DNA of 64,000 bases from Candidatus Fraserbacteria bacterium (GCA_037440025.1 JBBIUX010000001.1:11700-75699); one strand, 5' to 3'. Positions 9,971-43,381 are shown, numbered from the stretch's first letter. Translations and numbers: made by a program. Notes: generated from the letters alone by a model not told the origin.

Positions 9971-9983
9971 GGCGTACCTCCTC

Positions 9984-12046: not shown

Positions 12047-13698
12047 AGCTCCTCCTCAGCGAGCGAGATCACGCTGCGCGGACACTCTTCGGCGCAGATT
12101 CCGCATCCTTTGCAGAAATCAAAGTCTATCTCATAGCCGCCGTTCACCCGCGCGATGGCCGCATCGGGGCAGAAGAGCCAGCAGTTATCACAATAATTAC
12201 AGACGCCGCAGGAGAAGCAGCGCCCGGCTTCGGCGCGTGCCAGCTCTGCCGAGATAGGCTGTTTGCTTTCAGAGAAGTTTGTGATGCGCTCAGAGGCAGG
12301 GAGGTGCTCTGTCGGCACTCTGGGCAGGTGCGCGAAATAACTGAAATTCACGCGCAGGGCCTCTTCGAGCTTCACGGCTTTGGGCTTGCGCTCGCCACGT
12401 AAGAAGCTTTGAATAGCGCGGGCGGCTTCCTTGCCCGCTCCAATCGCTTGCACCACGGTGCTTGGGCCGGTCTGCGCGTCGCCGCCTATAAAAATCCCCG
12501 TGCGCTCTAAGAGCTCTTGAGAACGATCAATGATAATGCCTTCGCTCGTCTCTAAGCTCTGGGACAGGAACGGGAGCTCAGGCTCCTCGCCCACGGCCTT
12601 CAGCACGGCGTCAGCTCTTAAAACAAATGCAGAGCCGGGGATCGGGACCGGTCGGCGGCGCCCGCTCTGGTCGGGCTCGCCCAACTGCATCCGAATGAAC
12701 TGGACTTCTAGCTGTCCGTTGAGACGTCGGATCACCTGCGGCGCCGCCAAGAATTCGAACTGGATTCCCTCATGCTCGGCCTCTTCGATCTCTTCGGAGA
12801 TCGCGGGCATCTCTCCTCGTGTGCGGCGATAGACAACCACGGGGCGAGCGCCCAGTCGCAACGCGGTGCGCGCCGCGTCCATGGCAGTATTGCCCCCGCC
12901 GATCACTAAGACTTTTGTGCCGATCTGTACGGACCTCCCGACGTTGATTGTCTTGAGAAATTCCAATCCCGTCAGAGCCAGCTCTTCGCCGGGGATGCCC
13001 AGTGGTCGGCTGCGATGCGCGCCGGTCGCGATGAAGACGGCATCGTGTTGCTCCCAGAGTTTTTCCAAATCCATGTCGCGTCCGATACGGGTATTGACAG
13101 TGAACTCTACTCCCCAGCGTGCGATCAGCTCGATCTCTCGATCCAGAATTTCACGCGGCAGACGGTATGGGGGAATGCCGACTCGCAACATGCCGCCCGG
13201 CTCGCTCTCAGCCTCGAAGACCGTCACGGAGTAGCCGTCTTTCGCCAAAAAATACGCGCATGTCAGCCCCGCTGGCCCTGAGCCGACGACGGCCACTCGT
13301 TCGGCCCGACGTGCTCGCGAGGGAATTTCGTCTTCGAGGTCGAAGCACTCGTCAGCGACGAAGCGCTCGATGGCCGCTACAGAAAGAGCCTCGTCGAAAT
13401 CTTTTCGGTTACAGGCGCTCTCGCAGGGATGGTAGCAGACCCGCCCGCAGACTCCGGGTAAGGGGCTTGTCTGACGGAAGAGCCGCCAGGCGTCTCTATA
13501 TCGGCCTTCAGCGACCAAGCTCATGATCCGGGGAATATCGTTTCCGGCAGGGCAAGCTCCTGTGCAAGGTGCGAGTTTTTCGCTATAGATCGGACGTAGA
13601 TAGCGCCAGCTCCCCGTTCGGTTGTGGCCCATGTCGGCGAGCGAGACGGCCATCGGCGGCATCTCTTGCTCGCTCGTGAAAACGATGGGGTGCTTCAT
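12043..13698 (-). CDS. GltD-like NAD(P)H:FAD oxidoreductase fused to PorD-like 2x[4Fe-4S] ferredoxin domain
   Basis: 551 aa. CTGACPAGNDIP..GVCGRVCYHPCESAC, VAVVGSGPAGLTCA, VLVIGGGNTAMDAA. C-terminal CFSCGVCNYCDNCWLFCP..CKGCGICAEECP. Clearly paralogous by eye to the C-terminal half of 6956-9970 (identity not computed). Confidence 0.8.
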   Translation of the reverse strand: MKHPIVFTSEQEMPPMAVSLADMGHNRTGSWRYLRPIYSEKLAPCTGACPAGNDIPRIMSLVAEGRYRDAWRLFRQTSPLPGVCGRVCYHPCESACNRKDFDEALSVAAIERFVADECFDLEDEIPSRARRAERVAVVGSGPAGLTCAYFLAKDGYSVTVFEAESEPGGMLRVGIPPYRLPREILDREIELIARWGVEFTVNTRIGRDMDLEKLWEQHDAVFIATGAHRSRPLGIPGEELALTGLEFLKTINVGRSVQIGTKVLVIGGGNTAMDAARTALRLGARPVVVYRRTRGEMPAISEEIEEAEHEGIQFEFLAAPQVIRRLNGQLEVQFIRMQLGEPDQSGRRRPVPIPGSAFVLRADAVLKAVGEEPELPFLSQSLETSEGIIIDRSQELLERTGIFIGGDAQTGPSTVVQAIGAGKEAARAIQSFLRGERKPKAVKLEEALRVNFSYFAHLPRVPTEHLPASERITNFSESKQPISAELARAEAGRCFSCGVCNYCDNCWLFCPDAAIARVNGGYEIDFDFCKGCGICAEECPRSVISLAEEEL

Positions 13699-14390
13699 GG
13701 CCCTCTCCTTTCATGGAAGACCTCTTTCCCTGCTCCTCTCTGAACCTCTCCCCCGGCCCCTCCCCTAAAGTGGGAGGGGAGCCCCTTCCCTTTAGTAGGG
13801 AAGGGGGTGGGGGTAGGTAGGGTGAGGGTGTTCGGTCTGGCGATGGTAACGCGCTCGTAGGCTTCACGAGCGGCGGCTTGATTTCTCTCTTGCTGGCGAG
13901 CTGGGATTCTTTCGGCAATAGACTCTACAATGGCCTCCACGCTCACAAAGCCGGTGACCCGGGCGAAGGCCCCTAAAATAGCTGTATTGACAATGGGATT
14001 GGTTCGTGTGCCCAATTCATGCGCGACGGCAATAGCCCCCGCAGGCACGGTGGCGACCCGAAATGTGTTAAAGGTCGCAAAACTCTCCGGGGTGCGGTCG
14101 CTGTTGATGAGAATCGAGCCCCCCGGCTTGAGCCCCACGGTGACGTCCACCGCAGAGAGCAACGTCGGGTCGAGGACAACGACGTGATCGGGTTCGTAAA
14201 TCTGGCAGCGGCGGCGGATCGGAGCGGTATCAAATCTTAAAAAAGCCATAACAGGGGCACCGCGACGCTCGACGCCGAAGGCCGGAAACGCCTGGACGAA
14301 CTTCCCTTCTTTGAAGAGGGCTGTCGCTAAGATTTCTGACGCCACGACTGCCCCTTGGCCGCCCCGTCCGTGAAATCTCACTTCGATCAT
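13695..14390 (-). CDS. porG: pyruvate/2-oxoacid:ferredoxin oxidoreductase gamma subunit with repeat-encoded tail
   Basis: MIEVRFHGRGGQGAVVASEIL..FPAFGVERRGAP. The last ~45 aa (..LPTPTPFPTKGKGLPSHFRGGAGGE..) translate the 13745-13832 repeat. ATGA overlap with the next gene. Confidence 0.85.
   Translation of the reverse strand: MIEVRFHGRGGQGAVVASEILATALFKEGKFVQAFPAFGVERRGAPVMAFLRFDTAPIRRRCQIYEPDHVVVLDPTLLSAVDVTVGLKPGGSILINSDRTPESFATFNTFRVATVPAGAIAVAHELGTRTNPIVNTAILGAFARVTGFVSVEAIVESIAERIPARQQERNQAAAREAYERVTIARPNTLTLPTPTPFPTKGKGLPSHFRGGAGGEVQRGAGKEVFHERRGP
13745..13832. repeat. GC-rich tandem-hairpin repeat
   Basis: Hairpins CCCCTCCC-N7-GGGAGGGG (13757-13779) and CCCCTTCCC-TTTAGTA-GGGAAGGGG (13782-13806), ending in a GGTGAGGG motif. 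Boundaries approximate. Confidence 0.7.
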
Positions 14391-14650
14391 TGGGAATCAA
14401 CTCCCGTCGGTTTCATCTTCATCCTAACGTTGATAGGGTTGAAAACTCAATGATCTGGGCCAGCTGAAAAACTGCTCTTCGTCATATGAGACCAAAGGAG
14501 AGAGCTTGGCATCGGGAGTGATTGCCTGATGCGTGGCAGCCTAGAATATGATCGGCGACATTGCTGATTGGAAAGAAGGAGACTAGACTGATGGGGAACG
14601 TTGGGGTGTACGGGACGTCGCGTCGCAACGTTCTCAGGAAGGAGACGTCT

Positions 14651-14956
14651 ATGGCAGGCTTTCGGCTGCGCGATGGAATTGGGATTGAGCTCTTTCTCCA
14701 ACGCCTTGTGGATGTGACTTTAGCAGAGATCGAACAACAGTACGGCCCTCCGATGCCAGAGTTCAAGTCCTGCATCGAGCGTGCCCTCAAGCGCGTGCTC
14801 CATTATGAGATGGAGGCCTCGCCGTTGTGCGGGCTCTCGACGACGTGCAGCCCTGCTGAGGGAATGCGCGCGCGCCCTTGGTCACATCAGGCAGCAGCGT
14901 GGGGGTTGGTTTCGAAACCCGATCCCGAGTTGGAGGAACTGGCGAAACGCTCTTAG
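14651..14956 (+). CDS. hypothetical protein
   Basis: ATG at 14651 preceded by AGGAAGGAGA. 101 aa with no recognisable domain. Start chosen inside the 14561 ORF. Confidence 0.3.
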   Translation: MAGFRLRDGIGIELFLQRLVDVTLAEIEQQYGPPMPEFKSCIERALKRVLHYEMEASPLCGLSTTCSPAEGMRARPWSHQAAAWGLVSKPDPELEELAKRS

Positions 14957-14957
14957 A

Positions 14958-15584
14958 TCAGTGCCCAAGCTCGATGCTGAAAGTGACGGTCGCTTGGTCA
15001 ATGATCTCGCCGGCTTGGTCGCGCAAAATCGCGACAAATTGTGTTGGTCCAGGTGGAAAGCGTTTGGGAGTGGCGGCAAAGCCGACGGGCAGCCGAAGCG
15101 TCTGTGCTCGTCCCAGCCGAATGGAGCGGGGGCCAAAGAGTTTTTCGGTCGTCCCATCGCCTTTGGCAACGTAAAGCTCACCGATGACCCGCCAGTCGCT
15201 CGTCTGAACATTGATGAGGGTAGCGACGAACTCGATCCGCCCTGAGAGCGGGACGCTTAGGGCGCTGACGGGGTCAAGCCGAACGGCGCGGCCGGGGACG
15301 ATGGGCGTGCTTTGGGACAAAGAGTTACCAGCGGCAGCGGGGTGTTCCGCAACAGATGGTCTTTCAGTGGCCGGGGGTCGAGCGGAGCTTGTCCTGAACC
15401 GTTGTGGATCAATGAAGTCATTGCCCAAAGCATCTTCTCTTGAGCTGTTCTGTAAGAACGGGGTGCTCTTACTTGGTATCAAGCCCCCTTCGTGAGGCAT
15501 CGGCCGAGAGACCGACCACCCCAAGCTCAAGGTCGTCGCTAAGAGCAGTACGCTCCAGCGTTGCGCCCGTTTCTTACCGTTCAT
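14958..15584 (-). CDS. hypothetical secreted protein
   Basis: 208 aa. Signal-peptide-like MNGKKRAQRWSVLLLATTLSLGWSVS. No domain recognised. Confidence 0.5.
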   Translation of the reverse strand: MNGKKRAQRWSVLLLATTLSLGWSVSRPMPHEGGLIPSKSTPFLQNSSREDALGNDFIDPQRFRTSSARPPATERPSVAEHPAAAGNSLSQSTPIVPGRAVRLDPVSALSVPLSGRIEFVATLINVQTSDWRVIGELYVAKGDGTTEKLFGPRSIRLGRAQTLRLPVGFAATPKRFPPGPTQFVAILRDQAGEIIDQATVTFSIELGH

Positions 15585-21590: not shown

Positions 21591-21779
21591 TCAGAACTCT
21601 TTGGCAAACGTAATCCAATCAGCAACGTAGCGTTTGAAGAGATATTTGCTTCGATCAAATTTCTCGTCGTCATAGCGGATCTCTTCGGCGCTGTAGCGAT
21701 ATTCGGGGTAGATCGCGTTGCCGATCTCGGCGATCGCTGGGTAGTCGCTTGGCTGAAACTCGCGCAGTTGTAAACTCAT
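21591..21779 (-). pseudogene. GNAT acetyltransferase N-terminal fragment (62 aa)
   Basis: MSLQLREFQPSDYPAIAEIGNAIYPEY..AEEIRY resembles a GNAT N-terminus, but the ORF stops after 62 aa, abutting the C45 start. Confidence 0.4.
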
Positions 21780-21828: not shown

Positions 21829-21849
21829 CTGATCTCTTCAAGAGATCAG
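21829..21849 (-). terminator. perfect 10-bp-stem hairpin overlapping the DUF499 stop codon
   Basis: CTGATCTCTT-C-AAGAGATCAG. No clear U-tract, so terminator function is uncertain. Confidence 0.35.
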
Positions 21850-24536
21850 TCTTCGAAGGTGTGAGAGACGCCGTAATCGCTGAGCAGCTTCTCCAGTTCT
21901 TGTTTGAGTGTCGGCGGAATTCCGTCGGTCTCGATGACGAGTTGTACTCGGCCGGAGAGCTGCTTGAGCTGTTCCGCAGCCTTGAGGATGGGATAGAGCA
22001 TCTGGGTGTGGGTTGAGATCGTCAGGCGCTTGGGCAGGGGCGAGCCCGCTTCAGTCTTTGGTGGCAACGACTGACTAGGCGTCGTTGGAGCTTCTCCCTC
22101 AGCTACGACTGTCCCAAGATGCTCTGGGCGGGCGATCCACTGAGCTGCTTTCTCCGGTCGGATGAGCCAACCTGTGTCAAGATCTATCAGCCCTGTGCTG
22201 AGCTCTTCGTTGAACGTCACGTTCTCCAAGGGATCGCTGTGGCTCTTGCGCGTAGCGTAGCCGAATGTTCCGGCCTTCACGCCCTGAGCGACGGCGCTTC
22301 TCAGAACACCCTCATCAGCAAGCAAGGGCAACCCGGGTGTGCTGAGAAACGCTTGGTAGGCGGCCTTCAGTGCGACTTCTCCCTGCTCTTTGCCCCAGAC
22401 GAACTCTTTGATAAAGTCCGGCGCGAGCGCCTCGACCAAAAGCCCTTGATCTTTCAGAGCCTGCCAAGCCCGATCTGCCAATATGGCAGCAGCACTCAAA
22501 CTCTCTCGTGAGGTCAAACGCACTTCTTTGAGGCCCTCGCGAGTTGGGCGCACCAGTACGTTGTAGGCGCGCCGGAGCGCTTCTTGTAGCTCCTTTTGTG
22601 ACTGCTTGAAGCGCGCGTGCACGTCTGTTTGGTCCTCGTCATCGAGAGAGCGAAACTGCGCCGACGCTTTGAAAGCTTCGAGGGCTTTTTGCTTGCGGGC
22701 TTTGCTGCGCGCTGTGGCCAGCTCGCTCTGGTCAGCCAGGAGAAAGACCAGCTCGTTCTTGTGCACACGATAGCCTGAGCCACACGACTGCACGAATGAC
22801 TCCAGTTGCTTCTTGCCCTCTTCACTGGCGCTCCCTTGGGAGTGGACAATAACGAGCGTGGGCTCCGGGCGGTCTTCGATGTCACGGCTTTCCTTGGGCC
22901 ATAAAGACACGCGAAAATTCGCGCGACCGGCGATTGCACTGAGCGTTTCGCCAATGGTCTCTTCGATCCGCTCGTCGGTGACGCCGGCTTCGTAGTCTTG
23001 TAAAACTTTATTGAGATTGGGCCGGGACTCGAAGCGATAGCGCTGGTCTTTATAGACAAGATACCAGAGTCGGTCGCGCAGGCGATTGAGGGCTTCGGTG
23101 GCCAGTGCTGGGTTGAGGCCGGGGCGCAGCAAAGCCATATTAAGCTCTTCGGGTGAGGCCCCTCTATCTTGGGCAGCCGCCGAGATGCTGTAGAGAAAGA
23201 TGCTGCCGGCCAAGCCGCGCGCCAACTTCTCTCTATAATAATCGCCTCTCAACTCTTCATCTATAGCGCGGCCCTTCTCCAGAACATCGCTGGTGACGAC
23301 GGTATCGAACTCGCTCCCTAACAGTTTGACCACCTCGGAGCGCGTCGTGCGGTCGGCAAGGTCCCCATGACAGAGTTGAATGAGATAGGCAGAGCCAGGA
23401 CGCTCATGCCACAGCCGTCGGATCACTAGCGCCAAGAGTCTTAAGGCCCCGCGCGTCCGCTGAAACTGCGGATGCGGCCCCCAGCGCTGATAGAGCAAGT
23501 CAATCAGCTCAGGATGAAACGGGTAGGCTTGTTCCATGCGATTGCGATAGGCCAGCGTTCGCACGTCATCAGGGAAGGAGCGCGCATGGTCGTCGTAGTA
23601 GCTACGAAAAGCATCGGAGACGGCGCGAATCTCTTTGTTGGAGGGCAGGGTGCGAAAGAGTCGCTTCTGCAAGACCCCGAAGACCTCATCTTGCGCTACT
23701 GGGGTCTCGACCTTCTCGACGCGCCCGAAGATCTTTTTACTATAGTCGAATAATCTTTGGGCTTCTTCGGGCGTGCCCCCTGCAATTTCTAGCACGGAGG
23801 CGGGCAGCGAGACGACCAACACACAATTGGAGAGCCCTGAGGCAGCCACACTCAGCTCATGTAGAAAAGCCTGAGTCTGCTCTGAAAGATCACCTGTGCC
23901 TACGGGTACACCCTTCGCTTTGACCAGATACTGCAAGACCTCGTCCATCAAGATGAGGGCGGGGGCTGAAGCCCGTAATAGTTTCGTCAGTAGCTCGCTG
24001 CCAGGCGCGGTGCGGGCTTCATCGGCCTCACGCACCAGCTCATAGAGGGCTTTGCCGCCCAGCTTATAAGCCAATTCGCCCCAGAGCGTGCGCAGCTCTA
24101 AGCCGTCCACTTTACGGCCCTGTGGGCTGAGGGCTACGCCATCGAGAACCGCCACGGCGATGGGCTTGGAAGGCAAGGGCAACTCTCTCTTGAGAACCTC
24201 GCTCAGCAGCCTAGGCTGCCGTGCGGCGTGGTAGAGCGCCACGAGCGTGTGGGTCTTGCCGCCGCCGAAGGGTGTCTGCAGCTGCAAAACGGGCGCGCCC
24301 TTGTCTTTCTCGCCCGAGAGCCGCCCCAGCACGCCCTCTAAAAGATTCTCCAAGCTCTTCGTCATGAAAGTTTTCTCAAAGAAGCGTTCGGGCTCGGTGT
24401 AGTCTGAAGAAGCTTCGCCCGTTTCGACTTGATGGAGACTCGCGGCGAAGAGCGCCAGATTTAATTCTCCTGAAAAGACGTCGGGATGGGGCTCGCAGAG
24501 CTCCCAGACTCTGGGAATAGATTTCTTCTTGCCCAT
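21846..24536 (-). CDS. DUF499 (COG1483) AAA-type ATPase, defence-operon component
   Basis: 896 aa. N-terminus ..PHPDVFSGELNLALFAASLHQV..DYTEPERFFEKTFMT, Walker A TPFGGGKTHTLVALYH, Walker B LILMDEVLQY. Confidence 0.8.
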   Translation of the reverse strand: MGKKKSIPRVWELCEPHPDVFSGELNLALFAASLHQVETGEASSDYTEPERFFEKTFMTKSLENLLEGVLGRLSGEKDKGAPVLQLQTPFGGGKTHTLVALYHAARQPRLLSEVLKRELPLPSKPIAVAVLDGVALSPQGRKVDGLELRTLWGELAYKLGGKALYELVREADEARTAPGSELLTKLLRASAPALILMDEVLQYLVKAKGVPVGTGDLSEQTQAFLHELSVAASGLSNCVLVVSLPASVLEIAGGTPEEAQRLFDYSKKIFGRVEKVETPVAQDEVFGVLQKRLFRTLPSNKEIRAVSDAFRSYYDDHARSFPDDVRTLAYRNRMEQAYPFHPELIDLLYQRWGPHPQFQRTRGALRLLALVIRRLWHERPGSAYLIQLCHGDLADRTTRSEVVKLLGSEFDTVVTSDVLEKGRAIDEELRGDYYREKLARGLAGSIFLYSISAAAQDRGASPEELNMALLRPGLNPALATEALNRLRDRLWYLVYKDQRYRFESRPNLNKVLQDYEAGVTDERIEETIGETLSAIAGRANFRVSLWPKESRDIEDRPEPTLVIVHSQGSASEEGKKQLESFVQSCGSGYRVHKNELVFLLADQSELATARSKARKQKALEAFKASAQFRSLDDEDQTDVHARFKQSQKELQEALRRAYNVLVRPTREGLKEVRLTSRESLSAAAILADRAWQALKDQGLLVEALAPDFIKEFVWGKEQGEVALKAAYQAFLSTPGLPLLADEGVLRSAVAQGVKAGTFGYATRKSHSDPLENVTFNEELSTGLIDLDTGWLIRPEKAAQWIARPEHLGTVVAEGEAPTTPSQSLPPKTEAGSPLPKRLTISTHTQMLYPILKAAEQLKQLSGRVQLVIETDGIPPTLKQELEKLLSDYGVSHTFED

Positions 24537-24548
24537 GGCATACTCCCT

Positions 24549-24821
24549 TCAGTAGACATCGCCTCGTGACGAAATTACCTCGACAGAGACAACCTTCTTC
24601 TCCTGATCCACCTTGTACACCACGCGGAGTTTGCCTACCCGATAGCGCAACCTGCCCTTGAGTCTGCCCCAAAGCCGCTTGATGCCGTGATGCTCAAAGT
24701 CGAAAGGATCATGTTCCAAGGCTGCAAAGCATTCGTCGAGTCTCTGAGCTGTGCTCTTATCCACACGCTGGTAATAGTTTGCAGCATTCTTCGATAGCTC
24801 GACGCGATACTTAGCGTGCAT
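24549..24821 (-). CDS. relE: RelE/ParE-family toxin
   Basis: MHAKYRVELSKNA..LKGRLRYRVGKLRVVYKVDQEKKVVSVEVISSRGDVY. Start moved to ATG 24819-24821, giving an 11-nt overlap with the antitoxin. Confidence 0.75.
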   Translation of the reverse strand: MHAKYRVELSKNAANYYQRVDKSTAQRLDECFAALEHDPFDFEHHGIKRLWGRLKGRLRYRVGKLRVVYKVDQEKKVVSVEVISSRGDVY

Positions 24822-25032
24822 TGCTGCGCTTGATCTTCCGCCATGGGATAGTCTCACCGCGCTCGACCTCGGCCTTGCCTTTTTCCCAAGCTTTCATAAA
24901 AGTTTCATCTTCGAGGAGTTCTAGCGTTGCGCCCCACTCCTCCAAGCGCTCCATCAACATCAACAGATCGCGCACCATTTCGTTCGGCAGTTCGTCAATG
25001 ATTGCTTTAGCCCGCTCTTTGACCGTCATCAC
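24811..25032 (-). CDS. antitoxin (Phd/YefM- or RelB-like) partner of RelE
   Basis: 73 aa, acidic, ..ATLELLEDETFMKAWEKGKAEVERGETIPW. GTG/ATG start overlaps the methylase TGA. Confidence 0.6.
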   Translation of the reverse strand: MMTVKERAKAIIDELPNEMVRDLLMLMERLEEWGATLELLEDETFMKAWEKGKAEVERGETIPWRKIKRSNAR

Positions 25033-27782
25033 CGATCACCTTTCTCTTCAAACAACCCCTTCTGCCCGCGCGGGGTTTCGCGCAGCGACTCTCTTCTGAG
25101 CAGCCCCTCGCGCGCGGGCATCAACTGCTCCAACAGCTTACGCTCTTCGTCGCCCTCAGGCAAGACACTCACTAAAGCCTGCGCTGCCCGCCAGAAACGC
25201 TCCGCCTCTAATAATCCCTCTTCTGCTAAGAACTTCTGCAAATTCTCCAGATCGCCCTTCTCCCAGAGCACCAGCGCTTTGTGCAACCCATTGATGAGTA
25301 GGGGCACAGCGTGCTGTGCCTCTACAGGACCTTCTTGTCTTTCAAAAGATTTCGGATCGCGGTCGAGAGCCGCCAGCACTCGCACTTTGTCTTTGAGTTT
25401 CTTCGCTAAGCCCACGTGAGCCAGCGCATCCAGCTCAACTCCCAGCACCTGCGAGAGTTTTCGGGCATCATCGTAGGGCACCTCGTTGGCGTCGTAGGCC
25501 CAGCGGAAGAGCACATAGAAGCGCGTGGGCGCGTCCACTTGGCCGACGCCCTCGGTCTTTAAGATCATCTCCAGCGCGAAGTCGGCCACAAGCCGGCGCA
25601 CTTCATCTAAGAGTTCGCTCACGGTGATCGTCTCTCCCGACGGGTGTAAGACTTTGTCGTAGCGTCCGAAGATTTCTACGGCGGGGCCGATGGCGGACAC
25701 AAAGAAATCAGCGCCACTGATGCCGACTTCCCAAAATTTTTTCAGTCGGTCGCGCACGCGGGCTTCCAGTTGGGGCTTCAACTCGTGATACCAAGCCGTG
25801 GTTGATTTCGTGGGGCGTTTTCGGCACGCGAGCAGAATCGTCGAGACGATAGAACCCTTGCCACGGGTGTGGGTGCTGGCCTCCATTTCTGTGTGCACAG
25901 GCCAAGAGGCAGTTGGATAGAGTCCGGCGTTCAAGAGGCTCTGAATGAGACTTTCCCAAGCTGCTGTTGATTTATGCGTGAACATGATGACGGCAAGTCC
26001 CTCGTCTTTGAGCACGCGATGGATCTCTTGAAATGACTGGGTGAGCAAGCGTTCGTAGTGGCGGTGGGAGATGCATTTTGCGCAAGCGCAGTTGGGGTTG
26101 TCGTCTTGGTGTCGTTTGGACTTGGCCGCCGTAGCCCATCTTGCCGGGTTGTGAACGATCTCTTCGTCCTTGGGCGTCAGCTGAGTCTGAAACGCATCGG
26201 GGTAGAGATGGCCGACGGAGCGTTTGAGCCAGACGTAGAAGAAGTCTGAGAGATCGGCGTAGGGCACGTTGTCGTAGTAGGGCGGGTCGATGACGACGGC
26301 GTGTAAGCTGGAGTCTATGAAATTGCTGAGCGAAGCTGCTGAGCCGACCATGGCATTAGAGCAACTTCGCGTGCTGATTGCCTCACGAGAAACTGCAGCT
26401 TTTATCCAGTCAATGGCTCCTTCAAAGCCACCTGTGGAGATGCTGAAAGGATCAATTTCGGTGTAATCCCAAATCATGTGAAGATGATGTCCAGAAAAGG
26501 TGTTTCTGATTAGCTCTCGGCTCGTATGCCAGCTGCAAAGAATTGAGTTGTAGTCACCCAACCGATCAACCGCTAACCCCAAATACGTCGCCACGGCCTT
26601 GGCGTAGTCGTCGTTGCAGCACTCTTTTTTGATTTCTTCATGGGCTTCTCTCACCAATCTCGCAAAGGTCGCCAGCGCCAAGGCTTGACGGGGGTTGAAG
26701 TATTTGCCCCACTCCGTAAGCCCATACGTGGGACGCTGTGAGGCTCCTTGACCAATCGTGCCGGGGCTTGGCTCATCGGGAACCAGCGATAACTCGTCCT
26801 TGTGATTAGCTTTCAGCTCTTCGAGCCTTCTCGCTGCCTTCTTGAACGCCTCTATGTGCTTCGAGTTTGCGACTGCATACTGACGCCCGCTGCCACGGCC
26901 CGTGGTCTTCACGACGGCTACTAATCTATGGCCCATGCGCTCTGCCTGCGCTTCGCTTCGCAAATAATCATCATCTGCCGTCCCACCGCAGAGCAAGCAA
27001 TGGGCCGTGGCCCTTCTGACGGTTCCCTGCGACGGCCAGTCTTCGTTCGCGCCCACGGTCACGACTTCAAAATCCACTCGCTTATCGTAGTGATTCACGA
27101 TGGGCTTGAGCGCGATGCGCTTGTTGGGTTTCTTGGCGAGCCAGAACTGGCGAAAGAGCGGAATCTCTGCGCCGCACGCGGGATTGGGACAGCGCACCGT
27201 GCGCGACCAGATATATGCGATGGGCGTTGCGCCATCAGGCTCTTTGGGGTAGAATTCCGCAAGCTCCGCTCGCGCCCGCTCCAGCACCCATTTGCCCCAG
27301 CGCTCCACGTCTTCATGTAGGGGCGAACGGCCGTTCGCCCCTACACCATATCTCTGCGGGTACTCCAAGGTCGCTTTCAGAATGAGATACGCCACAGGGT
27401 TGTATTCGACGGCATATGCCTCGCAGCCCAATCTCAAAGCTTCAAGGGGAATAGAGCCGCCGCCCGCGAATGAATCTAAGACTTTGGGCGGCCCGTCGGG
27501 ATAATGCTGTCGCAAGAGTTTGCGGGCTTCTTCGATGAGCGATGGGTGCGCATCCCAGTTGCACAGATTGATGAGAAAGCGCTTCAAGCGCTCGCGCTCC
27601 TCCTCAGATTCCGGGGAGGGGAGCAGTGCTCCGAGCACCGCAGCGCGGGCCACAACCAGAGGGCGTCTGGCCCACCAGACGTGCAGCGTTGAGATGTGCC
27701 CGTGACGAATGGCCTTCTCGCGCTTGGCCTCTTTACTCAGCTCAGCCAAGGGCAAGAGGTCTTCGATGAGATAACGCTTCAT
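25029..27782 (-). CDS. DUF1156 (COG1743) Zn-ribbon N6-adenine DNA methyltransferase
   Basis: 917 aa. HISTLHVWWARRP, VLDSFAGGGSIPLEA (SAM motif I), CPNPACGAEIPL..CLLCGG, VVIDPPYYDNVPY (motif IV). Confidence 0.85.
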   Translation of the reverse strand: MKRYLIEDLLPLAELSKEAKREKAIRHGHISTLHVWWARRPLVVARAAVLGALLPSPESEEERERLKRFLINLCNWDAHPSLIEEARKLLRQHYPDGPPKVLDSFAGGGSIPLEALRLGCEAYAVEYNPVAYLILKATLEYPQRYGVGANGRSPLHEDVERWGKWVLERARAELAEFYPKEPDGATPIAYIWSRTVRCPNPACGAEIPLFRQFWLAKKPNKRIALKPIVNHYDKRVDFEVVTVGANEDWPSQGTVRRATAHCLLCGGTADDDYLRSEAQAERMGHRLVAVVKTTGRGSGRQYAVANSKHIEAFKKAARRLEELKANHKDELSLVPDEPSPGTIGQGASQRPTYGLTEWGKYFNPRQALALATFARLVREAHEEIKKECCNDDYAKAVATYLGLAVDRLGDYNSILCSWHTSRELIRNTFSGHHLHMIWDYTEIDPFSISTGGFEGAIDWIKAAVSREAISTRSCSNAMVGSAASLSNFIDSSLHAVVIDPPYYDNVPYADLSDFFYVWLKRSVGHLYPDAFQTQLTPKDEEIVHNPARWATAAKSKRHQDDNPNCACAKCISHRHYERLLTQSFQEIHRVLKDEGLAVIMFTHKSTAAWESLIQSLLNAGLYPTASWPVHTEMEASTHTRGKGSIVSTILLACRKRPTKSTTAWYHELKPQLEARVRDRLKKFWEVGISGADFFVSAIGPAVEIFGRYDKVLHPSGETITVSELLDEVRRLVADFALEMILKTEGVGQVDAPTRFYVLFRWAYDANEVPYDDARKLSQVLGVELDALAHVGLAKKLKDKVRVLAALDRDPKSFERQEGPVEAQHAVPLLINGLHKALVLWEKGDLENLQKFLAEEGLLEAERFWRAAQALVSVLPEGDEERKLLEQLMPAREGLLRRESLRETPRGQKGLFEEKGDR
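27316..27343. repeat. perfect 28-bp palindrome inside the methylase CDS
   Basis: GTAGGGGCGAACGG|CCGTTCGCCCCTAC, translated VGANGRSPL. Sister palindrome at 47407-47434. Confidence 0.85.
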
Positions 27783-28093
27783 GGCAAATCCAGCGCGAAC
27801 TTGATCGCGTCGTTGACCGATTGGATTTTGGCTGTGTTGAGAAACGTGATTCGTCTTTGTAGCCAGACTTTACGCACCGTGATCAGATTGTCGAGATTGA
27901 CAGCGCAGCGGCGAGGTAGGCCATCTGAAGGCCCGAGCTCCACCTCGGCTCGAATGCCACGAATGTGCGTCGAAACCGGCGCCACCGTCACCCACTGGCG
28001 GATGCGATACGCTTCGTTACGGGAGACCAACACCACAGGCCGACGCCCAATAGGAGCAGGCAAGTCAGCCCACCAGACTTCGCCACGCCTCAC
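27779..28093 (-). CDS. mazF: MazF/PemK-family toxin
   Basis: (V)RRGEVWWADLPAPIGRRPVVLVSRNEAY..VAPVST. GTG 28091-28093 overlaps the antitoxin TGA (GTGA). Its own TGA overlaps the methylase ATG (ATGA). Confidence 0.8.
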   Translation of the reverse strand: MRRGEVWWADLPAPIGRRPVVLVSRNEAYRIRQWVTVAPVSTHIRGIRAEVELGPSDGLPRRCAVNLDNLITVRKVWLQRRITFLNTAKIQSVNDAIKFALDLP

Positions 28094-28356
28094 TTCTCCT
28101 CCCACTCGATTTCGGCCAAGAGTTGGCGGGCTATTTGATCGACCCCCGCCATCTCTTCTTCCGTCTCGGGATACTTCCGATAGCCTTCGATGTAGCGACG
28201 GACGTCTTCCGCTTCCCGCTGCGCCTTCAGCCAATGACGGATCGCATCGGCAATCACCGCGCTTCGGGACTTCTTGAGCTGCCGACGAAACTTCTCTACG
28301 GCCCGAAACTCTTCTTTGGGTAGGCTTACTGCAATCTTCACTGTATGAGCTGCCAT
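28090..28356 (-). CDS. ribbon-helix-helix (CopG/MazE-like) antitoxin
   Basis: 88 aa. VKIAVSLPKEEFRAVEKFRRQLKKSRSAVIADAIRHWL RHH signature. Confidence 0.75.
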   Translation of the reverse strand: MAAHTVKIAVSLPKEEFRAVEKFRRQLKKSRSAVIADAIRHWLKAQREAEDVRRYIEGYRKYPETEEEMAGVDQIARQLLAEIEWEEK

Positions 28357-28423
28357 GATTCACCTCACAGTATGAACAAATGCATACTCAGTATAACTCT
28401 GGCGGACGGGCACTGTCAAACGC

Positions 28424-31400
28424 TTAGTTTTCAGACTCCACAGCCTTCTTCCAGTCGGCAAAGACCACTTTCACCGTGCGTAGGATCTCTTCGGGCGCAG
28501 GGAGTTTTTCAGCCGGGTTCTGAATCCGCGTAAGCTGCGGGCTCGTCAACGCATTCTCGACGGCATAGACCCAATATTTGTCTCCCAATCTTTGGGCCAT
28601 CTGCCATTCGTGCAGCGTAAGTTGCAGCTCACCCGTCGTCTGAAAACCCTTCACTTCGATGTGGCGTGTCTCATCGGGCCCTTGCGAAAGAATATCATAG
28701 CCGCGGAATTCTAACGAGACGTCTTGTGGGGTTCGCCCTTGAGCACGCTCGTAGCTCATCGCGACCGCCATAGCCGTTCGCTCGATTCGTTTCTTGAGTT
28801 CTTCATCAGCAAGTGCAGCCGCGGCTTGCTCGGTGAAAGTTCCCTTAGGCACGACGAGCGCCACGGCGATCAGCTCCGGCTCTAAGCGCACTAAAGCCAT
28901 CTCGCGCTCCAGTGCCTTCAAGCGCTCTGTCTTCTCGCGTACCAGCGCTTTGAGATGCTTCTCTTCTTCTTCGATGACCAGTCGCATGTCCTCGCCCGCG
29001 TCCAAACGCTTCTGATAGTCAAGCAATTTGCGATTCGATTCTGCCATCAAGGTGTTGAATGATCTTTCGAGATAGTCGCGCTTGATGCGGGTATCGCGCT
29101 CGCGGCGCGCTTTAGCTTCTTCGAAGACGCGATCTGTATAACGAGCGACCTCGCTTCTGATGGCCTCTTGGGCTTGCGTTAAGCCCTCGATAAAGTGTTG
29201 CGGGATGGTGGCATCTGGTTCAGCTCCCTCGAATTCCCACAGTACGCGGGGATCTACGGCGCGCACCTCGGCGCTTGCTGAGTCATAGAAGAACGTCAGC
29301 AGTTGTTCGCGGGCCGTCTGGTTTTCCCCATCGAGCACCTGAGCGCAATAGAACCAGAGTGAACCCGACCGCCCTTTGGGATCGAGCAAGAGCGTGCGCA
29401 GGGGCTTCTCTTTGCCTTGTAGAAAGTGCTCACAGAGAGCCTCAAAGAGCGGATGCCCCGGCGCCAAAAGCTCCGGTAGCGTCTCAGCTTCTTTAATCAC
29501 TTTGCGCTCGAAGGCGACCCTCAGCCCGCGCACGAGAGAGTCGGGCAAGTGAAATTTTTTAGCGAACTCCCGCGGCACGGCGACCTTCCAGACGCCCTTG
29601 TCTTTCTTATCGGCCTGCATCGTCCCGCCGATTAGTCCCAGGGCTTCTCTGGTGAAGCGCTCGACGTCCCAGGGGACTAAACGCATCTCCAGCGAGCGCG
29701 TGTCCTCTTGTAAGATCGCCATGTGATCAATGTGATGGCTGGCCAGCGCGCTCTCTTCTAAAGCTCTTCTATATTGCTGAAAAGCCTGCTCAAGATCGCG
29801 CGTGAAAGTGACCTCGACTTCTTGCGGACTGTCCTTGAGCACGGCCTGCATCACTAACTGTTCGAGCTTTACGCCCTCTAAGAGCGTCCCCACGACATCG
29901 TAGACGCTGTCGCCCAACTGTTGGCGCATCTCGTTGAGCTTTTCCAAGAGCGTGTCCAGAACCTGCCCCTCGCGAGTTTGGTGGTAGAGCATGTTATAGA
30001 CAAAGCAATCGCGCTTCTGCCCGTAGCGATGGATGCGCCCCATGCGCTGTTCCAATCTATTGGGGTTCCACGGCAGATCGTAGTTGACCATCAGGCGACA
30101 GAATTGCAAATTTAAGCCTTCCCCAGCAGCCTCGGTAGCCACCATCACTTGGACGTCTGGGGCGCGAAAGCGGCGCTCTTGCTCGATGCGTTCTGAGAGC
30201 GTCATCTCGCCGTGAATTGTGGCCGTCTCATAGCCCCACTCGCGGAAGCGTTTGATCAGCCCGTAGAGCGTGTCTTTGAACTCCGTGAAGACGAGCAGCT
30301 TTTCATCAGAGTCGTTCTTCAGATGTCTTTCGACGAGTCCGCGCAGCTGCTCGGTCTTGGCTTCTTGACTGACTCTTGCGGCTTGCTGAGCAAGCTGGAT
30401 GAGCCGATCGAGGTGGCGGATCTCATCGCGCAGCTCTTCAGGGCTTTCGGCAGCGGTCAGCCCCTCGCGCTGCTCTTCAAAACGCTCACGCTCTTGAGCC
30501 GTATAGTCTTCGGGTTCTTCGTCTGGGGCGTCTGTGGGGAGTTCGTATTCGGTGTCGCGCACGGCTTCCCAGCGGTCCAAGAGCGTAAGCAGCTTCGCTC
30601 GGCGGCGCTTGAGCGATTCGCCAATGGCCGTCAGGCTCGAAGCTAAACGCCGTTGGAGCACGACCAAGGCCAAGCCGATGTTGCGGCTGCGACGGTCTTT
30701 CGCTGCGGCGACGCGCCCGTACCATTTCTTCACATAAGCTGTGACGGCTTCATAGAGCTTCGCTTCTTCGGAGGAGAGAGCCACCTTGAGGCTGCTGACC
30801 TCGCGTTTCTTGAAGAGCGGGTTACCCAAAAGATCTTTCGCTTGTTCTTTAGAGCGTCGCAGCACGAAGGGGAGCTGTCCTTGCGCTCGAGAGGTTTCTA
30901 ATAAATGCCATTCGTCGGCGAAGAGGTAGGGCGCCAGCAGCTCGATCAGCTTAAAATACGCGAAGTGATCGCCCTTGTGAGGGGTGGCCGTCAAGAGCAA
31001 CAGATGCGTGGTCGCCCGCGCGAGCGCCGCGCCCAGCTCGTAGCGCTGCGTGCGCTTTTCTTCTCGACCGTACTTGGCTGCCGAGAGCTCATGAGCTTCG
31101 TCGAAGATGACCAAGTCCCAGCGTCGGCGGCTGAGCAGTTGGGGGTAGGGCTCGCGCTTGGCGAAGTCTAATGAAGTGATCAATTGCGGGTTGCGTTCGA
31201 GAAAGTCATCCGAGCGGAGTTGCTCGGCAAGCCCGCGATCTATCTGGGTGAACTCTTCGCGGAACCAATCGCGCATCTCGCGGCACCATTGGTCTTGCAG
31301 ATGGGCGGGGACGACAAGTAAGACGCGCCGCACAACGCCGCGTACTTTCAGTTCTTTCATAAGCAGTCCGGCCATGATCGTCTTGCCCAAGCCGGGATCG

Positions 31401-31804
31401 TCTGTGAGAAGAAAGCGCACCTTGGGCAAGGGCAAGATATGCTTATAGACCGCGTCCACCTGATGGGGCAGGAGATCTACTTGGGTGACGCTGACAGCAT
31501 AGTGAGGGTCGAACGTATAAGCCAAGCGCATACGAAGCGCTTCCGCGTAGAGCAAGAAGGGCTTCTGAGGTAGCAGATTTCCTTGAGCGAACTGTTCTCT
31601 CAAAGAAGGGATAACCTTCACCCGCTGGGACAACTCTTCAGGGCTTAGGTAGAACGTTTCTGCGCGTTTGCTCTGCTGAAAGATGAGGCCGAGCCGGATC
31701 TTTTCCCCCACAGGTTCGCAGAGGAAGACTTGAGCAGTCTCCTCGAAGGGGGCTAGCCGAACCAGATCGCCGTGACGGAGTAAGGGCTTGGCTTGGGGTG
31801 TCAT
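28424..31804 (-). CDS. SNF2-family helicase with C-terminal DUF3883 nuclease-like domain
   Basis: 1126 aa. LLTDDPGLGKT, FDEAHEL, LLLTATPHKGD, QRMGRIHRYGQ. C-terminus GYDILSQG..RHIEVKG..LTLHEWQMAQRLGDKYWVYAV. Confidence 0.85.
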   Translation of the reverse strand: MTPQAKPLLRHGDLVRLAPFEETAQVFLCEPVGEKIRLGLIFQQSKRAETFYLSPEELSQRVKVIPSLREQFAQGNLLPQKPFLLYAEALRMRLAYTFDPHYAVSVTQVDLLPHQVDAVYKHILPLPKVRFLLTDDPGLGKTIMAGLLMKELKVRGVVRRVLLVVPAHLQDQWCREMRDWFREEFTQIDRGLAEQLRSDDFLERNPQLITSLDFAKREPYPQLLSRRRWDLVIFDEAHELSAAKYGREEKRTQRYELGAALARATTHLLLLTATPHKGDHFAYFKLIELLAPYLFADEWHLLETSRAQGQLPFVLRRSKEQAKDLLGNPLFKKREVSSLKVALSSEEAKLYEAVTAYVKKWYGRVAAAKDRRSRNIGLALVVLQRRLASSLTAIGESLKRRRAKLLTLLDRWEAVRDTEYELPTDAPDEEPEDYTAQERERFEEQREGLTAAESPEELRDEIRHLDRLIQLAQQAARVSQEAKTEQLRGLVERHLKNDSDEKLLVFTEFKDTLYGLIKRFREWGYETATIHGEMTLSERIEQERRFRAPDVQVMVATEAAGEGLNLQFCRLMVNYDLPWNPNRLEQRMGRIHRYGQKRDCFVYNMLYHQTREGQVLDTLLEKLNEMRQQLGDSVYDVVGTLLEGVKLEQLVMQAVLKDSPQEVEVTFTRDLEQAFQQYRRALEESALASHHIDHMAILQEDTRSLEMRLVPWDVERFTREALGLIGGTMQADKKDKGVWKVAVPREFAKKFHLPDSLVRGLRVAFERKVIKEAETLPELLAPGHPLFEALCEHFLQGKEKPLRTLLLDPKGRSGSLWFYCAQVLDGENQTAREQLLTFFYDSASAEVRAVDPRVLWEFEGAEPDATIPQHFIEGLTQAQEAIRSEVARYTDRVFEEAKARRERDTRIKRDYLERSFNTLMAESNRKLLDYQKRLDAGEDMRLVIEEEEKHLKALVREKTERLKALEREMALVRLEPELIAVALVVPKGTFTEQAAAALADEELKKRIERTAMAVAMSYERAQGRTPQDVSLEFRGYDILSQGPDETRHIEVKGFQTTGELQLTLHEWQMAQRLGDKYWVYAVENALTSPQLTRIQNPAEKLPAPEEILRTVKVVFADWKKAVESEN

Positions 31805-31853: not shown

Positions 31854-31930
31854 TGGTACGCCCGGGAGGACTTGAACCTCCGACCTCTGGCTCCGCAGGC
31901 CAGCGCTCTGATCCCCTGAGCTACGGGCGC
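31854..31930 (-). tRNA. tRNA-Arg (anticodon GCG), CCA encoded
   Basis: GCGCCCG-TA-GCTCAGGGGATCAGAGC-G-CTGGC-CTGCGGA-GCCAG-AGGTC-GGAGGTTCAAGTCCTCC-CGGGCGT-A-CCA. Closely resembles my recollection of E. coli tRNA-Arg. Confidence 0.9.
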
Positions 31931-31987
31931 GTGTGCACGGCTATTCTAACAGGCAAACAGAGGCTTGTCAACGGGCAAATCCCCCTC
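31865..31987. repeat. attL: 123-bp direct repeat (tRNA-Arg nt 1-66 plus 57 bp upstream)
   Basis: Identical by eye to 37879-38001. Confidence 0.9.
31943..31971 (-). promoter_or_regulatory. consensus sigma70 promoter of tRNA-Arg (lies inside the direct repeat)
   Basis: Minus strand TTGACA (31966-31971), 17 nt, TAGAAT (31943-31948), 12 nt before the mature 5' end. Identical copy at 37957-37985. Confidence 0.7.
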
Positions 31988-32065: not shown

Positions 32066-32995
32066 ATGGTCAGCGAGACAGTCAACCAGCGGACGTTCGG
32101 TCAGCTCTCGGCAGCGTTCGAGGGCTTTCAGTTGTATGCCAGAATCGAGGGACGGTCAGCGAAGACGTTGGAAGTCTATCGGGTGGCTTTCCAAGACGTG
32201 CTCAGTTTCCTTGGGGAGAGCATAGCCTTATCCGACGTGGCTGCAGGGGATATACGGCGCTGGATTGCCCATAAATTGGACGCTGGCTACTCCAAGACGA
32301 CTATCAATATCCGGCTGCGTGCTTTGCGCGCCTTTTTTAACTGGCTTGTCCGAGAAGGGTATATGACGGAGAGACCCTTAGCCAACGTCAAGCAACTGCG
32401 AACGCCAAGACAGTATCCTTACGTGCTCTCAGAGCAACAGGTCATGGCGCTGCTGAGGGTTATCAAGCGAGACTCTTGGACGGGCAAGCGCAACTGGGCA
32501 ATGGCGCTGACCATGCTCGACGCCATGCTCCGGCTCTCCGAGCTTATCCACCTAGAGCTTGCAGACGTGAACTTGCAAGCTCGCTCAATAAGAGTGCGTC
32601 ACGGCAAGGGGGATAAAGAGCGCGTGGTCTTTATGGGCCGCCGTCTCACAAGGGCCATGCACGACTGGCTTGCGGTGAGAGGCTATCACGTCGGGGAAGA
32701 TAGAGTCTTTGTCACCCGTCAAGGCACAAAGCTCGACAGCCGCAACGTGCAACGGATACTCGAACGGTATGCAGCCAAGGCGAAACTGACGGACGTGCGG
32801 GTCAGCCCGCACACATTGAGACACACCGGCGCGACGCTCTTTATCAGATACGGCGGCGACCCCTTTAGCCTGCAAAAGCTCTTAGGTCACAGCACTGTCA
32901 CCGTGACAGAGATTTATGTGCACATGGCGGGCACGGCTTTGAGGGAAGCGCACGCCAAGGCGAGCCCGGTGGATAGGCTGTTGGAGGGGAGCTAA
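32066..32995 (+). CDS. tyrosine recombinase/integrase (XerC/D-like)
   Basis: 309 aa. N-terminal SAM-like core-binding domain (LRALRAFFNWLVREGY). Catalytic ..MLRLSEL..GKGDKER..SPHTLRHTGAT..LLGHSTVTVTEIYVH. Confidence 0.9.
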   Translation: MVSETVNQRTFGQLSAAFEGFQLYARIEGRSAKTLEVYRVAFQDVLSFLGESIALSDVAAGDIRRWIAHKLDAGYSKTTINIRLRALRAFFNWLVREGYMTERPLANVKQLRTPRQYPYVLSEQQVMALLRVIKRDSWTGKRNWAMALTMLDAMLRLSELIHLELADVNLQARSIRVRHGKGDKERVVFMGRRLTRAMHDWLAVRGYHVGEDRVFVTRQGTKLDSRNVQRILERYAAKAKLTDVRVSPHTLRHTGATLFIRYGGDPFSLQKLLGHSTVTVTEIYVHMAGTALREAHAKASPVDRLLEGS

Positions 32996-37438: not shown

Positions 37439-37878
37439 GCTCAATCACTCACAATCCTGAGCCGTCGCACGCGCCGCAAATCTTCAACACTCACGCCGAG
37501 CTTCTTTGCTAGTTGGCGGGCCTTCTCTTCGGCCAGCACGGGTTTGACGCCGATATAGGCGACGTATTCTTGCCGTTGCGCTCTAGCTTCTTTATCCCAG
37601 ACGTTGCGCTTGAGCACGTGGTATTTTGCGTTCCGTCCTGCTTTGGCGAGAAATAAACTTATAACGTTCTCAGTATAGCACCGGTAACGGATAAAATCAA
37701 GTCTCGAAAAGGTGACGAATTTCCCCGTCTTCCCCGGCCCCTTGATTTGACGCCAGCGGGGGGTGGGCTACAATTTTGCTTACTGTCAAAAACAGATAGG
37801 CCAGCGGTCTTTGGCATGTCAGGCAGAAGAGCTAAACGAGGGGAAAAACCTGTTGGCAAGAGGGTTATCGCGCTTGCT

Positions 37879-38001
37879 GGAGGACTTGAACCTCCGACCT
37901 CTGGCTCCGCAGGCCAGCGCTCTGATCCCCTGAGCTACGGGCGCGTGTGCACGGCTATTCTAACAGGCAAACAGAGGCTTGTCAACGGGCAAATCCCCCT
38001 C
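37879..38001. repeat. attR: 123-bp direct repeat containing a 3'-truncated pseudo-tRNA-Arg (37879-37944, minus) and its promoter copy (37957-37985)
   Basis: Identical to 31865-31987. Lacks the last 11 nt (3' acceptor strand, discriminator, CCA); the sequence continues as AGCAAGCGCG on the minus strand. Confidence 0.9.
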
Positions 38002-42818: not shown

Positions 42819-42897
42819 GCGCGCCCATTCGACGCTCTTCTCCTTCGGCTGGCCGAACAGCTCTGGATGCAAATAGAAGCCTCGTTCTGGCTTCATC
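42819..42897. repeat. cassette-boundary repeat, copy A
   Basis: GCGCGCCCATTCGACGCTCTTCTCC..GGCTGGCCGAACA..GGCTTCATC. The minus strand reads MKPERGFYLHPELFGQPKEKSVEWARHP. Confidence 0.75.
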
Positions 42898-43260: not shown

Positions 43261-43317
43261 ACAGGGTCACCCGGCACGATTGTACGCTCTTCCTGTCTCT
43301 CCGGCAAGCGTTTGATT

Positions 43318-43378: not shown

Positions 43379-43381
43379 ATT

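Follow-up and report, generated by a model that had tools for sequence, protein, structure and literature searches.

We analyzed a 64,000-nt stretch of DNA from Candidatus Fraserbacteria bacterium (GCA_037440025.1), hereafter the window, which carries an Hma defence operon with a small toxin-antitoxin (TA) pair at each of its two gene junctions. All positions refer to the window, and loci used for comparison are coded L0xx or L1xx. In the explanation that we consider fairly probable, the Hma operon harbors the two pairs as self-maintained TA passenger cassettes at known embedding hot spots. At related loci with decaying hma genes, the TA pairs remain, under purifying selection, and they do not stabilize the island. 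A preliminary description of this DNA had suggested that the pairs could be addiction modules with such a stabilizing function. This suggestion is contradicted by L146/L147, L152/L153, L144, L145 and L126, in which hma genes are deleted or shredded and TA pairs persist.

The window region is an intact Hma operon adjoining a tRNA-Arg gene, with the complete gene content by which Hma is recognized. The genes lie on the minus strand in the order helicase, methylase, ATPase, and the same order is found wherever all three occur on one strand among 80 genome loci. hmaA (28424–31804) encodes an SNF2 helicase with a C-terminal NOV_C nuclease domain of the PD-(D/E)XK type; profile searches identified the domains SNF2-rel_dom, Helicase_C and NOV_C (the latter with E = 1.1e-19 over profile positions 1–91 of 91), and the PADLOC match has E = 1.9e-183. 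hmaB (25029–27782) encodes a DUF1156 N6-adenine DNA methyltransferase (DUF1156, E = 1.1e-22; PADLOC HmaB, E = 5e-135) with a DPPY motif in its translation, and hmaC (21846–24536) a DUF499 AAA+ ATPase (DUF499, E = 8.3e-41; PADLOC HmaC, E = 1.8e-147). According to the profile searches, the hmaC gene of the window does not encode an N-terminal HEPN domain, unlike many of its relatives. The names of the nearest homologs suggest a Bipolaricaulota (Acetothermia) bacterium as the source of the DNA. Hma was renamed a Type-1 DUF499-centred BREX-related system in a 2026 paper (PMC12839542). Anti-phage activity of Hma has been demonstrated, by others, only for Halomonas HmaA (PMC11232893).

On the minus strand, the hmaA stop codon TAA (28426–28424) is followed by a 67-nt gap up to the open reading frame (ORF) of an 88-aa RHH antitoxin of the MazE type (28090–28356; RHH_1 match). 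This ORF overlaps by GTGA the gene of a 104-aa MazF/PemK endoribonuclease toxin (27779–28093; PF02452 match), which in turn overlaps hmaB by ATGA. The hmaB stop codon TGA (25031–25029) lies within the sequence GTGATGA, which also contains both candidate start codons (25032 and 25029) of a 73- or 72-aa ORF (24811–25032), assigned as an antitoxin by its position and a family profile. An 11-nt overlap leads to the gene of a 90-aa toxin with RelE/ParE fold (24549–24821; ParE_toxin match, closest to archaeal aRelE), and a 12-nt spacer, AGGGAGTATGCC (24537–24548), with a Shine-Dalgarno sequence for hmaC completes the arrangement. The layout of this spacer is shared with L083 and L081. Minus-strand reading and the ORF table reproduced every coordinate of the gene order and overlaps in the preliminary description. 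The 67-nt gap, too, had been given with the right length and borders, but it is not a plain spacer, since it contains a promoter (TTGACA-18-TATACT) and an inverted repeat.

Protein Families of the Two TA Pairs

The toxin of the first, mazEF-type pair matches PemK_toxin (PF02452, E = 6.5e-15) with residues 2–99 on profile positions 1–107 of 109. In a comparison with PDB, it aligns over nearly its whole length with MazF3, MazF6, MazF4 and MazF9 of M. tuberculosis. The residues R18-P19 and S41-T42 are present in its sequence and are assigned as catalytic by comparison with R29 and T52 of E. coli MazF. Its subfamily is very large, well conserved and widespread outside Hma (2,179 homologs). The antitoxin matches RHH_1 (E = 3.2e-6), weakly resembles MazE6 and CopG, and has a conserved acidic C-terminal tail, EWEE(K/P); a GAGGTG sequence is located 5 nt upstream of its ATG. 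As expected for MazEF, a full-length toxin of the PemK/MazF fold is thus combined with a small, overlapping upstream antitoxin that has a DNA-binding domain. Compared with relatives, dN/dS is 0.10–0.16 for the RHH antitoxin and 0.13–0.21 for MazF.

The second toxin matches ParE_toxin (PF05016, E = 2.3e-8) with residues 7–86 on profile positions 1–86 of 89. Its best solved relative is aRelE of P. horikoshii (1wmi, E = 8.9e-5, residues 4–90), whose C-terminal Arg...Tyr it keeps (R86...Y90). With ribosome-dependent mRNA cleavage and gyrase poisoning as the two modes of action to be considered, both features suggest that it acts as an RNase. NCBIfam searches with the small proteins returned only a weak YoeB-type match, for this toxin, and a word-based search with it found only 5 proteins.

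As a single sequence, the 73-aa ORF has no match in Pfam, NCBIfam or PDB. An exhaustive HMMER search among 1.84 billion proteins yielded only 27 representatives of its rare family. A profile built from 26 members matches RelB in the C-terminal segment by which it binds the toxin (9g12_C residues 46–85, E = 0.0024). A DUF2281-type N-terminus is found in 7 of the 26 members, and single members have a Phd/YefM or RHH N-terminal domain instead. Profile searches recognized no RHH, Phd or HTH domain in the 73-aa protein, and the promoter scan revealed no promoter-like site 5′ of its gene; the own promoter and DNA-binding domain of RelBE are thus not seen here. Judged by these matches, the protein is an antitoxin with a RelB-like neutralizing tail, a DUF2281-like helical N-terminus and no recognizable DNA-binding domain. 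Its pairing with the toxin is conserved in L083, L144, L145, L146 and L147, and its dN/dS relative to homologs is 0.04–0.13.

None of the four small proteins matches a PADLOC model. Both toxins are intact, as had been noted before: the profile matches are near full length, and dN/dS is 0.04–0.21 for all four small genes. By sequence, each of the pairs is a genuine type II TA cassette in line with the defence operon.

Decay of hma Genes around Retained TA Pairs

Several relatives show the same locus in states of decay. L150 shares the flanks of the window on both sides, namely the integrase and tRNA-Arg (window 32988–31854, 85% identity) and the downstream genes (window 21733–18073), and L148 shares the downstream genes and, on the other side, the tRNA-Arg. 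Within these window-like flanks, both loci contain only the RHH-MazF cassette with its promoter, and no hma remnant was found there. The tRNA-Arg of the window is 100% identical to the tRNA at the TA remnant locus in L146, L147 and L148.

In L146 and L147, the tRNA-Arg is followed by 50 nt, ∼25 nt of the hmaB 3′ end and the intact second antitoxin-toxin pair, then by ∼50 nt of the hmaC 5′ end (with a 6-nt deletion and a TGG-to-TGA change), a hairpin and an acetyltransferase gene. This arrangement proves that the hma genes were deleted around the retained pair. The hairpin, which in the window spans the hmaC stop codon, is still present in L146 despite the deletion of hmaC. We also considered the insertion of Hma genes around a resident second pair, which is ruled out by the hmaB 3′ and hmaC 5′ remnants in L146/L147.

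L152 and L153 contain two hmaA fragments, RHH-MazF, a second stacked pair and a 37-nt remnant of the hmaB 5′ end. An insertion of Hma genes around a resident pair in L152 was likewise rejected. The pair stacked behind RHH-MazF (L152 1217–1633, also in L153) combines a DUF4258 protein (E = 4.5e-5) with a DUF2283 protein (E = 1.5e-13). What is left in L144 is a C-terminal hmaB remnant and a shredded hmaC, together with the antitoxin-toxin pair (96% and 86% identity). In L145, a single deletion took out both the methylase and the nuclease domain, resulting in an in-frame HmaA(75–968)::HmaB(796–916) fusion (4776–7796) that remains coupled to the antitoxin-toxin pair and hmaC. In L126, an internally deleted hmaB is located between both pairs. 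The low dN/dS of the four small genes (0.04–0.21) includes loci without Hma.

The Promoter of the mazEF-type Cassette

The internal promoter TTGACA-18-TATACT (28390–28419, minus strand) has an 11/12 match. Between its –10 box and the Shine-Dalgarno sequence, we found the inverted repeat GTATGCA-TTTG-TTCATAC (28370–28387), a candidate operator for the RHH antitoxin. It occurs once in the window, with 0.07 occurrences expected by chance. Considered as a hairpin of the RNA leader, it folds no better than shuffled sequences (z = 0.45), which makes a DNA operator the better reading.

An alignment of the regions upstream of RHH revealed a conserved promoter (TTGACx, spacer, TATAyT), a palindrome (GTATGAA-nnnn-TTCATAC) and GTGAGGTGA. 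These three elements are conserved both in Hma contexts (window, L126 and L152) and in non-Hma contexts (L148, L150 and L154), and the same applies to the Shine-Dalgarno sequence. They are weaker in L155. In L126, L152 and L153, RHH-MazF lies behind the hmaA 3′ end; the gene 3′ of the cassette encodes an acetyltransferase in L148, L150 and L154 and an FAD oxidase in L155 and L156. We relied on the upstream alignment, since a strict promoter-plus-operator pattern matched only L152 and L153 because the spacing varies. The conservation of the promoter together with the cassette in Hma and non-Hma contexts indicates that the promoter travels with the cassette.

The closest relatives differ in the content of their junctions. 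L082 (81, 75 and 76% identity of HmaA, HmaB and HmaC to the window) is empty at both hmaA/hmaB (A/B) and hmaB/hmaC (B/C). L081 (85, 78 and 79%) is empty at A/B and has a different, ATGA-coupled cassette of an 83-aa and a 127-aa protein at B/C. In L083 (77% for HmaB, 87% for HmaC), the B/C junction holds the antitoxin-toxin pair of the window (83% and 80%), and A/B is not on the contig. Occupancy is thus sporadic within a clade of 75–90% identity. The preliminary description had proposed this comparison of orthologous operons as a check, and its outcome, with L082 empty twice and L081 combining an empty junction with a different cassette, lends no support to the idea that the occupancy is non-random. 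The larger protein of the L081 cassette has a DTG motif, and neither of the two belongs to a Pfam family. The whole L081 operon (3548–15386) is flanked by a transketolase-like E1-beta gene on one side and by the E2 gene of a 2-oxoacid dehydrogenase cluster on the other. In L115 (4030–5423), an HmaB N-terminus 89% identical to that of the window occurs without hmaA and RHH-MazF; the DNA 5′ of it is unrelated and has, on the opposite strand, a small ORF resembling a DNA methylase gene.

In L081, the A/B gap of 84 nt is 71% identical to the gap of the window, rising to 79% between the –10 box and the Shine-Dalgarno sequence. In L082, the gap measures ∼43–52 nt, with the promoter kept and the palindrome deleted. 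The palindrome arms match at 6–7 of 7 positions in five TA-bearing loci, at 5 of 7 in L154 and at 4 of 7 in L081, which has no TA genes at this junction. The simplest reading of these alignments is that the clade descends from an ancestor with the cassette, of which L081 and L082 retained the promoter, as a scar before hmaB, after losing the reading frames.

Transcription of the Operon

The only promoter-like site upstream of hmaA is the promoter of the tRNA-Arg gene (TTGACA-17-TAGAAT, σ70-type and TG-extended; 31943–31971, minus strand, 11/12 match), which makes a tRNA-hmaA co-transcript likely. At the other end of the operon, a hairpin with a 9-bp stem and a 3-nt loop, CTGATCTCT-TGA-AGAGATCAG (21829–21849, minus strand, z = –2.18), extends across the hmaC stop codon and likely marks the end of the transcript. 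Taken as a whole, our scan for promoters and terminators is at chance level, with 4 promoter-like sites versus 3.9 expected and 17 terminator-like sites versus 12.3; from it, we used only the two 11/12 promoter sites with conservation support.

According to the preliminary description, the TA pairs are expressed as part of the defence transcript. This view agrees with the start/stop overlaps, and no terminator-like site separates the internal promoter from the hairpin, the sole one on the coding strand of 28390–21846 lying within the hmaC coding sequence. It does not account for the promoter of the first pair, which together with the operator-like repeat is kept upstream of RHH-MazF in non-Hma contexts too. 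From these signals, the transcript most likely runs from the mazE promoter through mazE, mazF, hmaB, the second antitoxin gene, relE and hmaC to the hairpin, and read-through from tRNA-Arg and hmaA probably adds to it. The mazE promoter is probably autoregulated, with the RHH antitoxin as a putative repressor at the palindrome.

Occupancy of the Two Junctions in Other Hma Loci

Our survey comprised 80 genome and 60 metagenome loci with HmaB homologs, and a junction was counted as occupied if the gap was at least 150 nt. The order hmaA-hmaB-hmaC is maintained across these loci. Occupied junctions were counted in 45 of 77 loci for A/B and in 44 of 73 for B/C (58–60%); both are occupied in 22 of 62 loci (35%), without association between the two (Fisher p = 0.31). 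These counts are slightly inflated by five B/C gaps without a separate ORF, at least one of which (L077) represents a HEPN domain added in frame to hmaC. In this locus (5929–6415), the N-terminal extension comprises 162 aa with an RNRWAH motif (HEPN-type Rx4H) and takes the site of the relE-type gene of the window. Elsewhere than in L081 and L082, with their longer, promoter-bearing gaps, empty A/B junctions have a median gap of 1 nt. Sequence clustering showed the inserts to be mostly singletons. They include AAA_21/AAA_15 ATPases, Schlafen/HATPase_c_4, GmrSD, DUF1016/YhcG, NYN, RES, AIPR and TIR proteins, as well as the TA-type combinations MNT with HepT/HEPN, DUF433 with DUF5615/PIN-like, UPF0175/PIN, and HicB. 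No further PemK toxin was found at any junction of the surveyed loci, and tblastn detected no copy of the four small proteins in the 80 genome loci. Around the cassettes, a search for transposon-like signatures revealed no flanking direct repeats and only short families at chance level.

Embedding of genes in Hma is already known. Embedded genes are present in 62.7% of 1,485 Hma systems according to Payne et al. (bioRxiv 10.1101/2024.01.29.577857) and in ∼66.5% according to the Halomonas Hma study (PMC11232893), and back-up RNase effectors have been described in BREX-related loci (PMC12839542). The impression that occupancy of both junctions is non-random is accounted for by this published property of Hma; with 22 of 62 loci doubly occupied and no association between the junctions, double occupancy is expected and not special.

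A Proposed Explanation and Its Alternatives

We propose that the two cassettes depend on the operon in different ways. The mazEF-type cassette would bring its own σ70 promoter and an operator-like palindrome and, with no terminator and an ATGA overlap, would lead directly into hmaB. The relBE-type cassette, which has no promoter and is tied to the hmaB stop codon on one side and the hmaC start codon on the other, would rely wholly on upstream transcription and translational coupling. Both would be kept by selection on the pairs themselves, either through addiction-type deletion resistance or through a function of their own. Deletions removing a pair would free a stable RNase, and deletions ending at the borders of a pair would be tolerated; the pairs would therefore outlive the hma genes and give them no protection. 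Since the antitoxin supply would be tied to the operon transcript, a phage that shuts off host transcription would release MazF and RelE, and translation would halt. Such a back-up role in abortive infection is possible; the location of the relE-type gene at the site of the HEPN-DUF499 fusion in many relatives would fit it, and a dedicated partnership is disfavored by the fact that the pairs are independent of Hma.

A number of points weigh against this explanation. The use of the internal promoter is deduced from its consensus and conservation only, and hmaB may have had the promoter of L081 and L082 from the start, with the cassette exploiting it later and carrying it off, in which case it is no scar. 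The order of events is a reconstruction from sequence comparison, and in L148, L150 and L154, where RHH-MazF directly precedes the acetyltransferase gene and hma remnants are absent, the cassette could occupy an older chromosomal site of its own. Since either TA pair has gone missing in some relatives, deletion resistance is relative, not absolute. The relBE-type antitoxin was assigned by a weak profile match (E = 0.0024) and by gene position. Finally, several comparison loci are short metagenome contigs that are possibly chimeric or contain errors. L126, for example, is 1.5 kb long, and its MazF (399–722) is 59% identical to that of the window, compared with 90–100% for the adjoining hmaB remnants, which could reflect recombination, decay or an assembly chimera.

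An alternative that deserves weighing, although we regard it as unlikely, is that Hma recruited the two RNase toxins as integrated, fail-safe arms for abortive infection, selected because of Hma and filling the role of the N-terminal HEPN RNase fused to DUF499. The relE-type toxin gene lies 12 nt 5′ of hmaC, at the position of the HEPN fusion in relatives (L077; PMC12839542), and hmaC of the window has no HEPN domain. Of nine Hma-embedded candidates that others tested, seven conferred defence against phages, among them a family of RelE-domain proteins, and 96.7% of the embedded genes are co-oriented with the host system (bioRxiv 10.1101/2024.01.29.577857). Against this, both pairs are intact and under purifying selection after the loss of hma, showing that their maintenance is independent of Hma; moreover, the closest Hma operons have empty junctions or another cassette, and the MazF subfamily is very widespread outside Hma.

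Domestication is a second alternative, which we put forward as speculative and rather doubtful: the mazEF cassette may have become the control module of hmaB-hmaC, so that together with the relBE-type pair, transcription of the operon works as a dead-man switch. If true, the autoregulated promoter drives hmaB-hmaC and was retained for this purpose even without TA genes in L081 and L082, and a phage that shuts off transcription or destroys the transcript releases two RNases. Orphan TA pairs and clusters in these genomes (e.g., at 42.9–46.6 kb) would then be fossils of decayed defence operons.

Improbable, in our view, is a chiefly regulatory role, in which the main function of the mazEF cassette is that of an autoregulated promoter module for adjusting the levels of hmaB-hmaC, like the dedicated repressors of defence islands. 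The promoter and palindrome directly upstream, the coupling of mazF to hmaB and the promoter kept before hmaB in L081 and L082 after the loss of the TA reading frames are in line with such a front end, as is the position of the cassette at the head of unrelated genes elsewhere (acetyltransferase in L148/L150/L154, FAD oxidase in L155/L156) and the location of mazEF before the sigB operon in S. aureus and Listeria. However, regulation needs no toxin, the second, promoter-less pair is left unexplained, and the palindrome is degenerate in L081 and deleted in L082, which makes regulation through it dispensable there. Neutral hitch-hiking, with the pairs landing by chance in permissive gaps and having no effect on host or Hma, is the least probable of all, because the sporadic occupancy among close relatives and the acceptance of hundreds of unrelated cassettes at these junctions stand against dN/dS values of 0.04–0.21 in all four genes across contexts, preserved start/stop coupling, and survival of the pairs while neighboring genes of 2.7–3.4 kb decay.

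Comparison with Known Systems

The genes embedded in Hma that are described in bioRxiv 10.1101/2024.01.29.577857 and PMC11232893 resemble the present case: they are additional same-strand genes at hmaA/hmaB and hmaB/hmaC, their content varies among close relatives, and they come from defence or toxin families. The cassettes named in the passages that we compared are Septu, PARIS, Ppl, ABC-ATPase pairs, GmrSD-like, HEPN and NYN proteins and a large RelE-domain protein; MazEF together with a small RelBE-type pair at both junctions, a promoter scar and a decay series are not mentioned among them. In BREX and DUF499-centred systems, RNase effectors (HEPN, TA-like HEPN-MNT, PIN and Schlafen) are located within or fused to the core loci, and a HEPN RNase is fused to the DUF499 N-terminus in more than half of the Type-1 systems (PMC12839542). 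This fusion site corresponds to the site of the relE-type gene in the window. Unlike the fused domains of BREX-related systems, the putative RNases of the window are stand-alone toxins, each with its own antitoxin. The words MazF and ParE are absent from the main text of PMC12839542.

MazF3, MazF6, MazF9 and MazE6 of M. tuberculosis have the same organization as the first pair, in which the gene of a PemK-fold toxin of ∼104 aa is preceded and overlapped by that of an RHH antitoxin whose C-terminal tail is acidic. The sequence identity to them is low, and the window cassette differs in being coupled to a downstream defence gene. P. horikoshii aRelE (1wmi) aligns end to end with the second toxin, and both share the C-terminal Arg...Tyr. 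The toxin-binding segment of RelB (9g12_C) matches the C-terminus of the window antitoxin family. In contrast to aRelB and antitoxins of the RelB/Phd type, the N-terminus of the window antitoxin is DUF2281-like and not RHH or Phd/YefM, and no own promoter was found.

In S. aureus and Listeria, mazEF is located upstream of the sigB operon and co-transcribed with it. For Listeria, the position directly upstream of the sigB operon is given in the abstract of PMC5308263. There as here, the cassette precedes a functionally unrelated operon; the downstream genes form a stress σ factor operon in that case and a defence system in ours.

Three features were not found in those portions of the Hma and BREX-related literature that we compared: a cassette-borne promoter with a scar in TA-free relatives, a RelBE-type pair that lacks a promoter and has an antitoxin with a DUF2281-like N-terminus, and a comparative decay series at an orthologous tRNA-Arg locus. 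Embedding within Hma, BREX, DISARM and type I restriction loci is used to discover defence systems (“guilt by embedding”), and the present locus with its relatives offers a natural time series of the events after embedding. One TA cassette can donate a promoter to its host operon, another can live without a promoter, and both survive the piecemeal loss of defence genes. These findings argue for caution before every embedded gene is called a partner of its host system. They also provide a testable case for two questions, namely whether chromosomal TA pairs persist through addiction and whether transcription-coupled TA pairs act as back-ups in abortive infection.

Flanking Region

The island sits at the tRNA-Arg gene (31854–31930, minus strand), the 3′ end of which is located 49 nt upstream of the hmaA start. 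A perfect direct repeat of 123 nt (31865–31987 and 37879–38001) spans the promoter of the tRNA-Arg gene along with ∼66 nt at the 5′ end of the tRNA, so that two full tRNA-Arg genes (31854–31930 and 37869–37944) bracket a segment of ∼6 kb. With its tyrosine-integrase-like ORF (32066–32995, plus strand), this segment resembles an integrative element that has entered tRNA-Arg immediately upstream of the Hma operon.

At 42893–46503, small genes of TA type are clustered: three DUF433 genes (one of them truncated), two hicA, two hicB, an XRE-type HTH and a DUF5678 gene. The contrast between the intact toxins of the operon and decayed toxins at 42.9–46.6 kb, drawn in the preliminary description, is only partly right, since the two HicA toxins there match over their full length. 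The acetyltransferase encoded 3′ of the TA/Hma locus has 319–359 aa in L146, L148, L150 and L154, and is represented by ∼61 codons in the window (21593–21778, minus strand).

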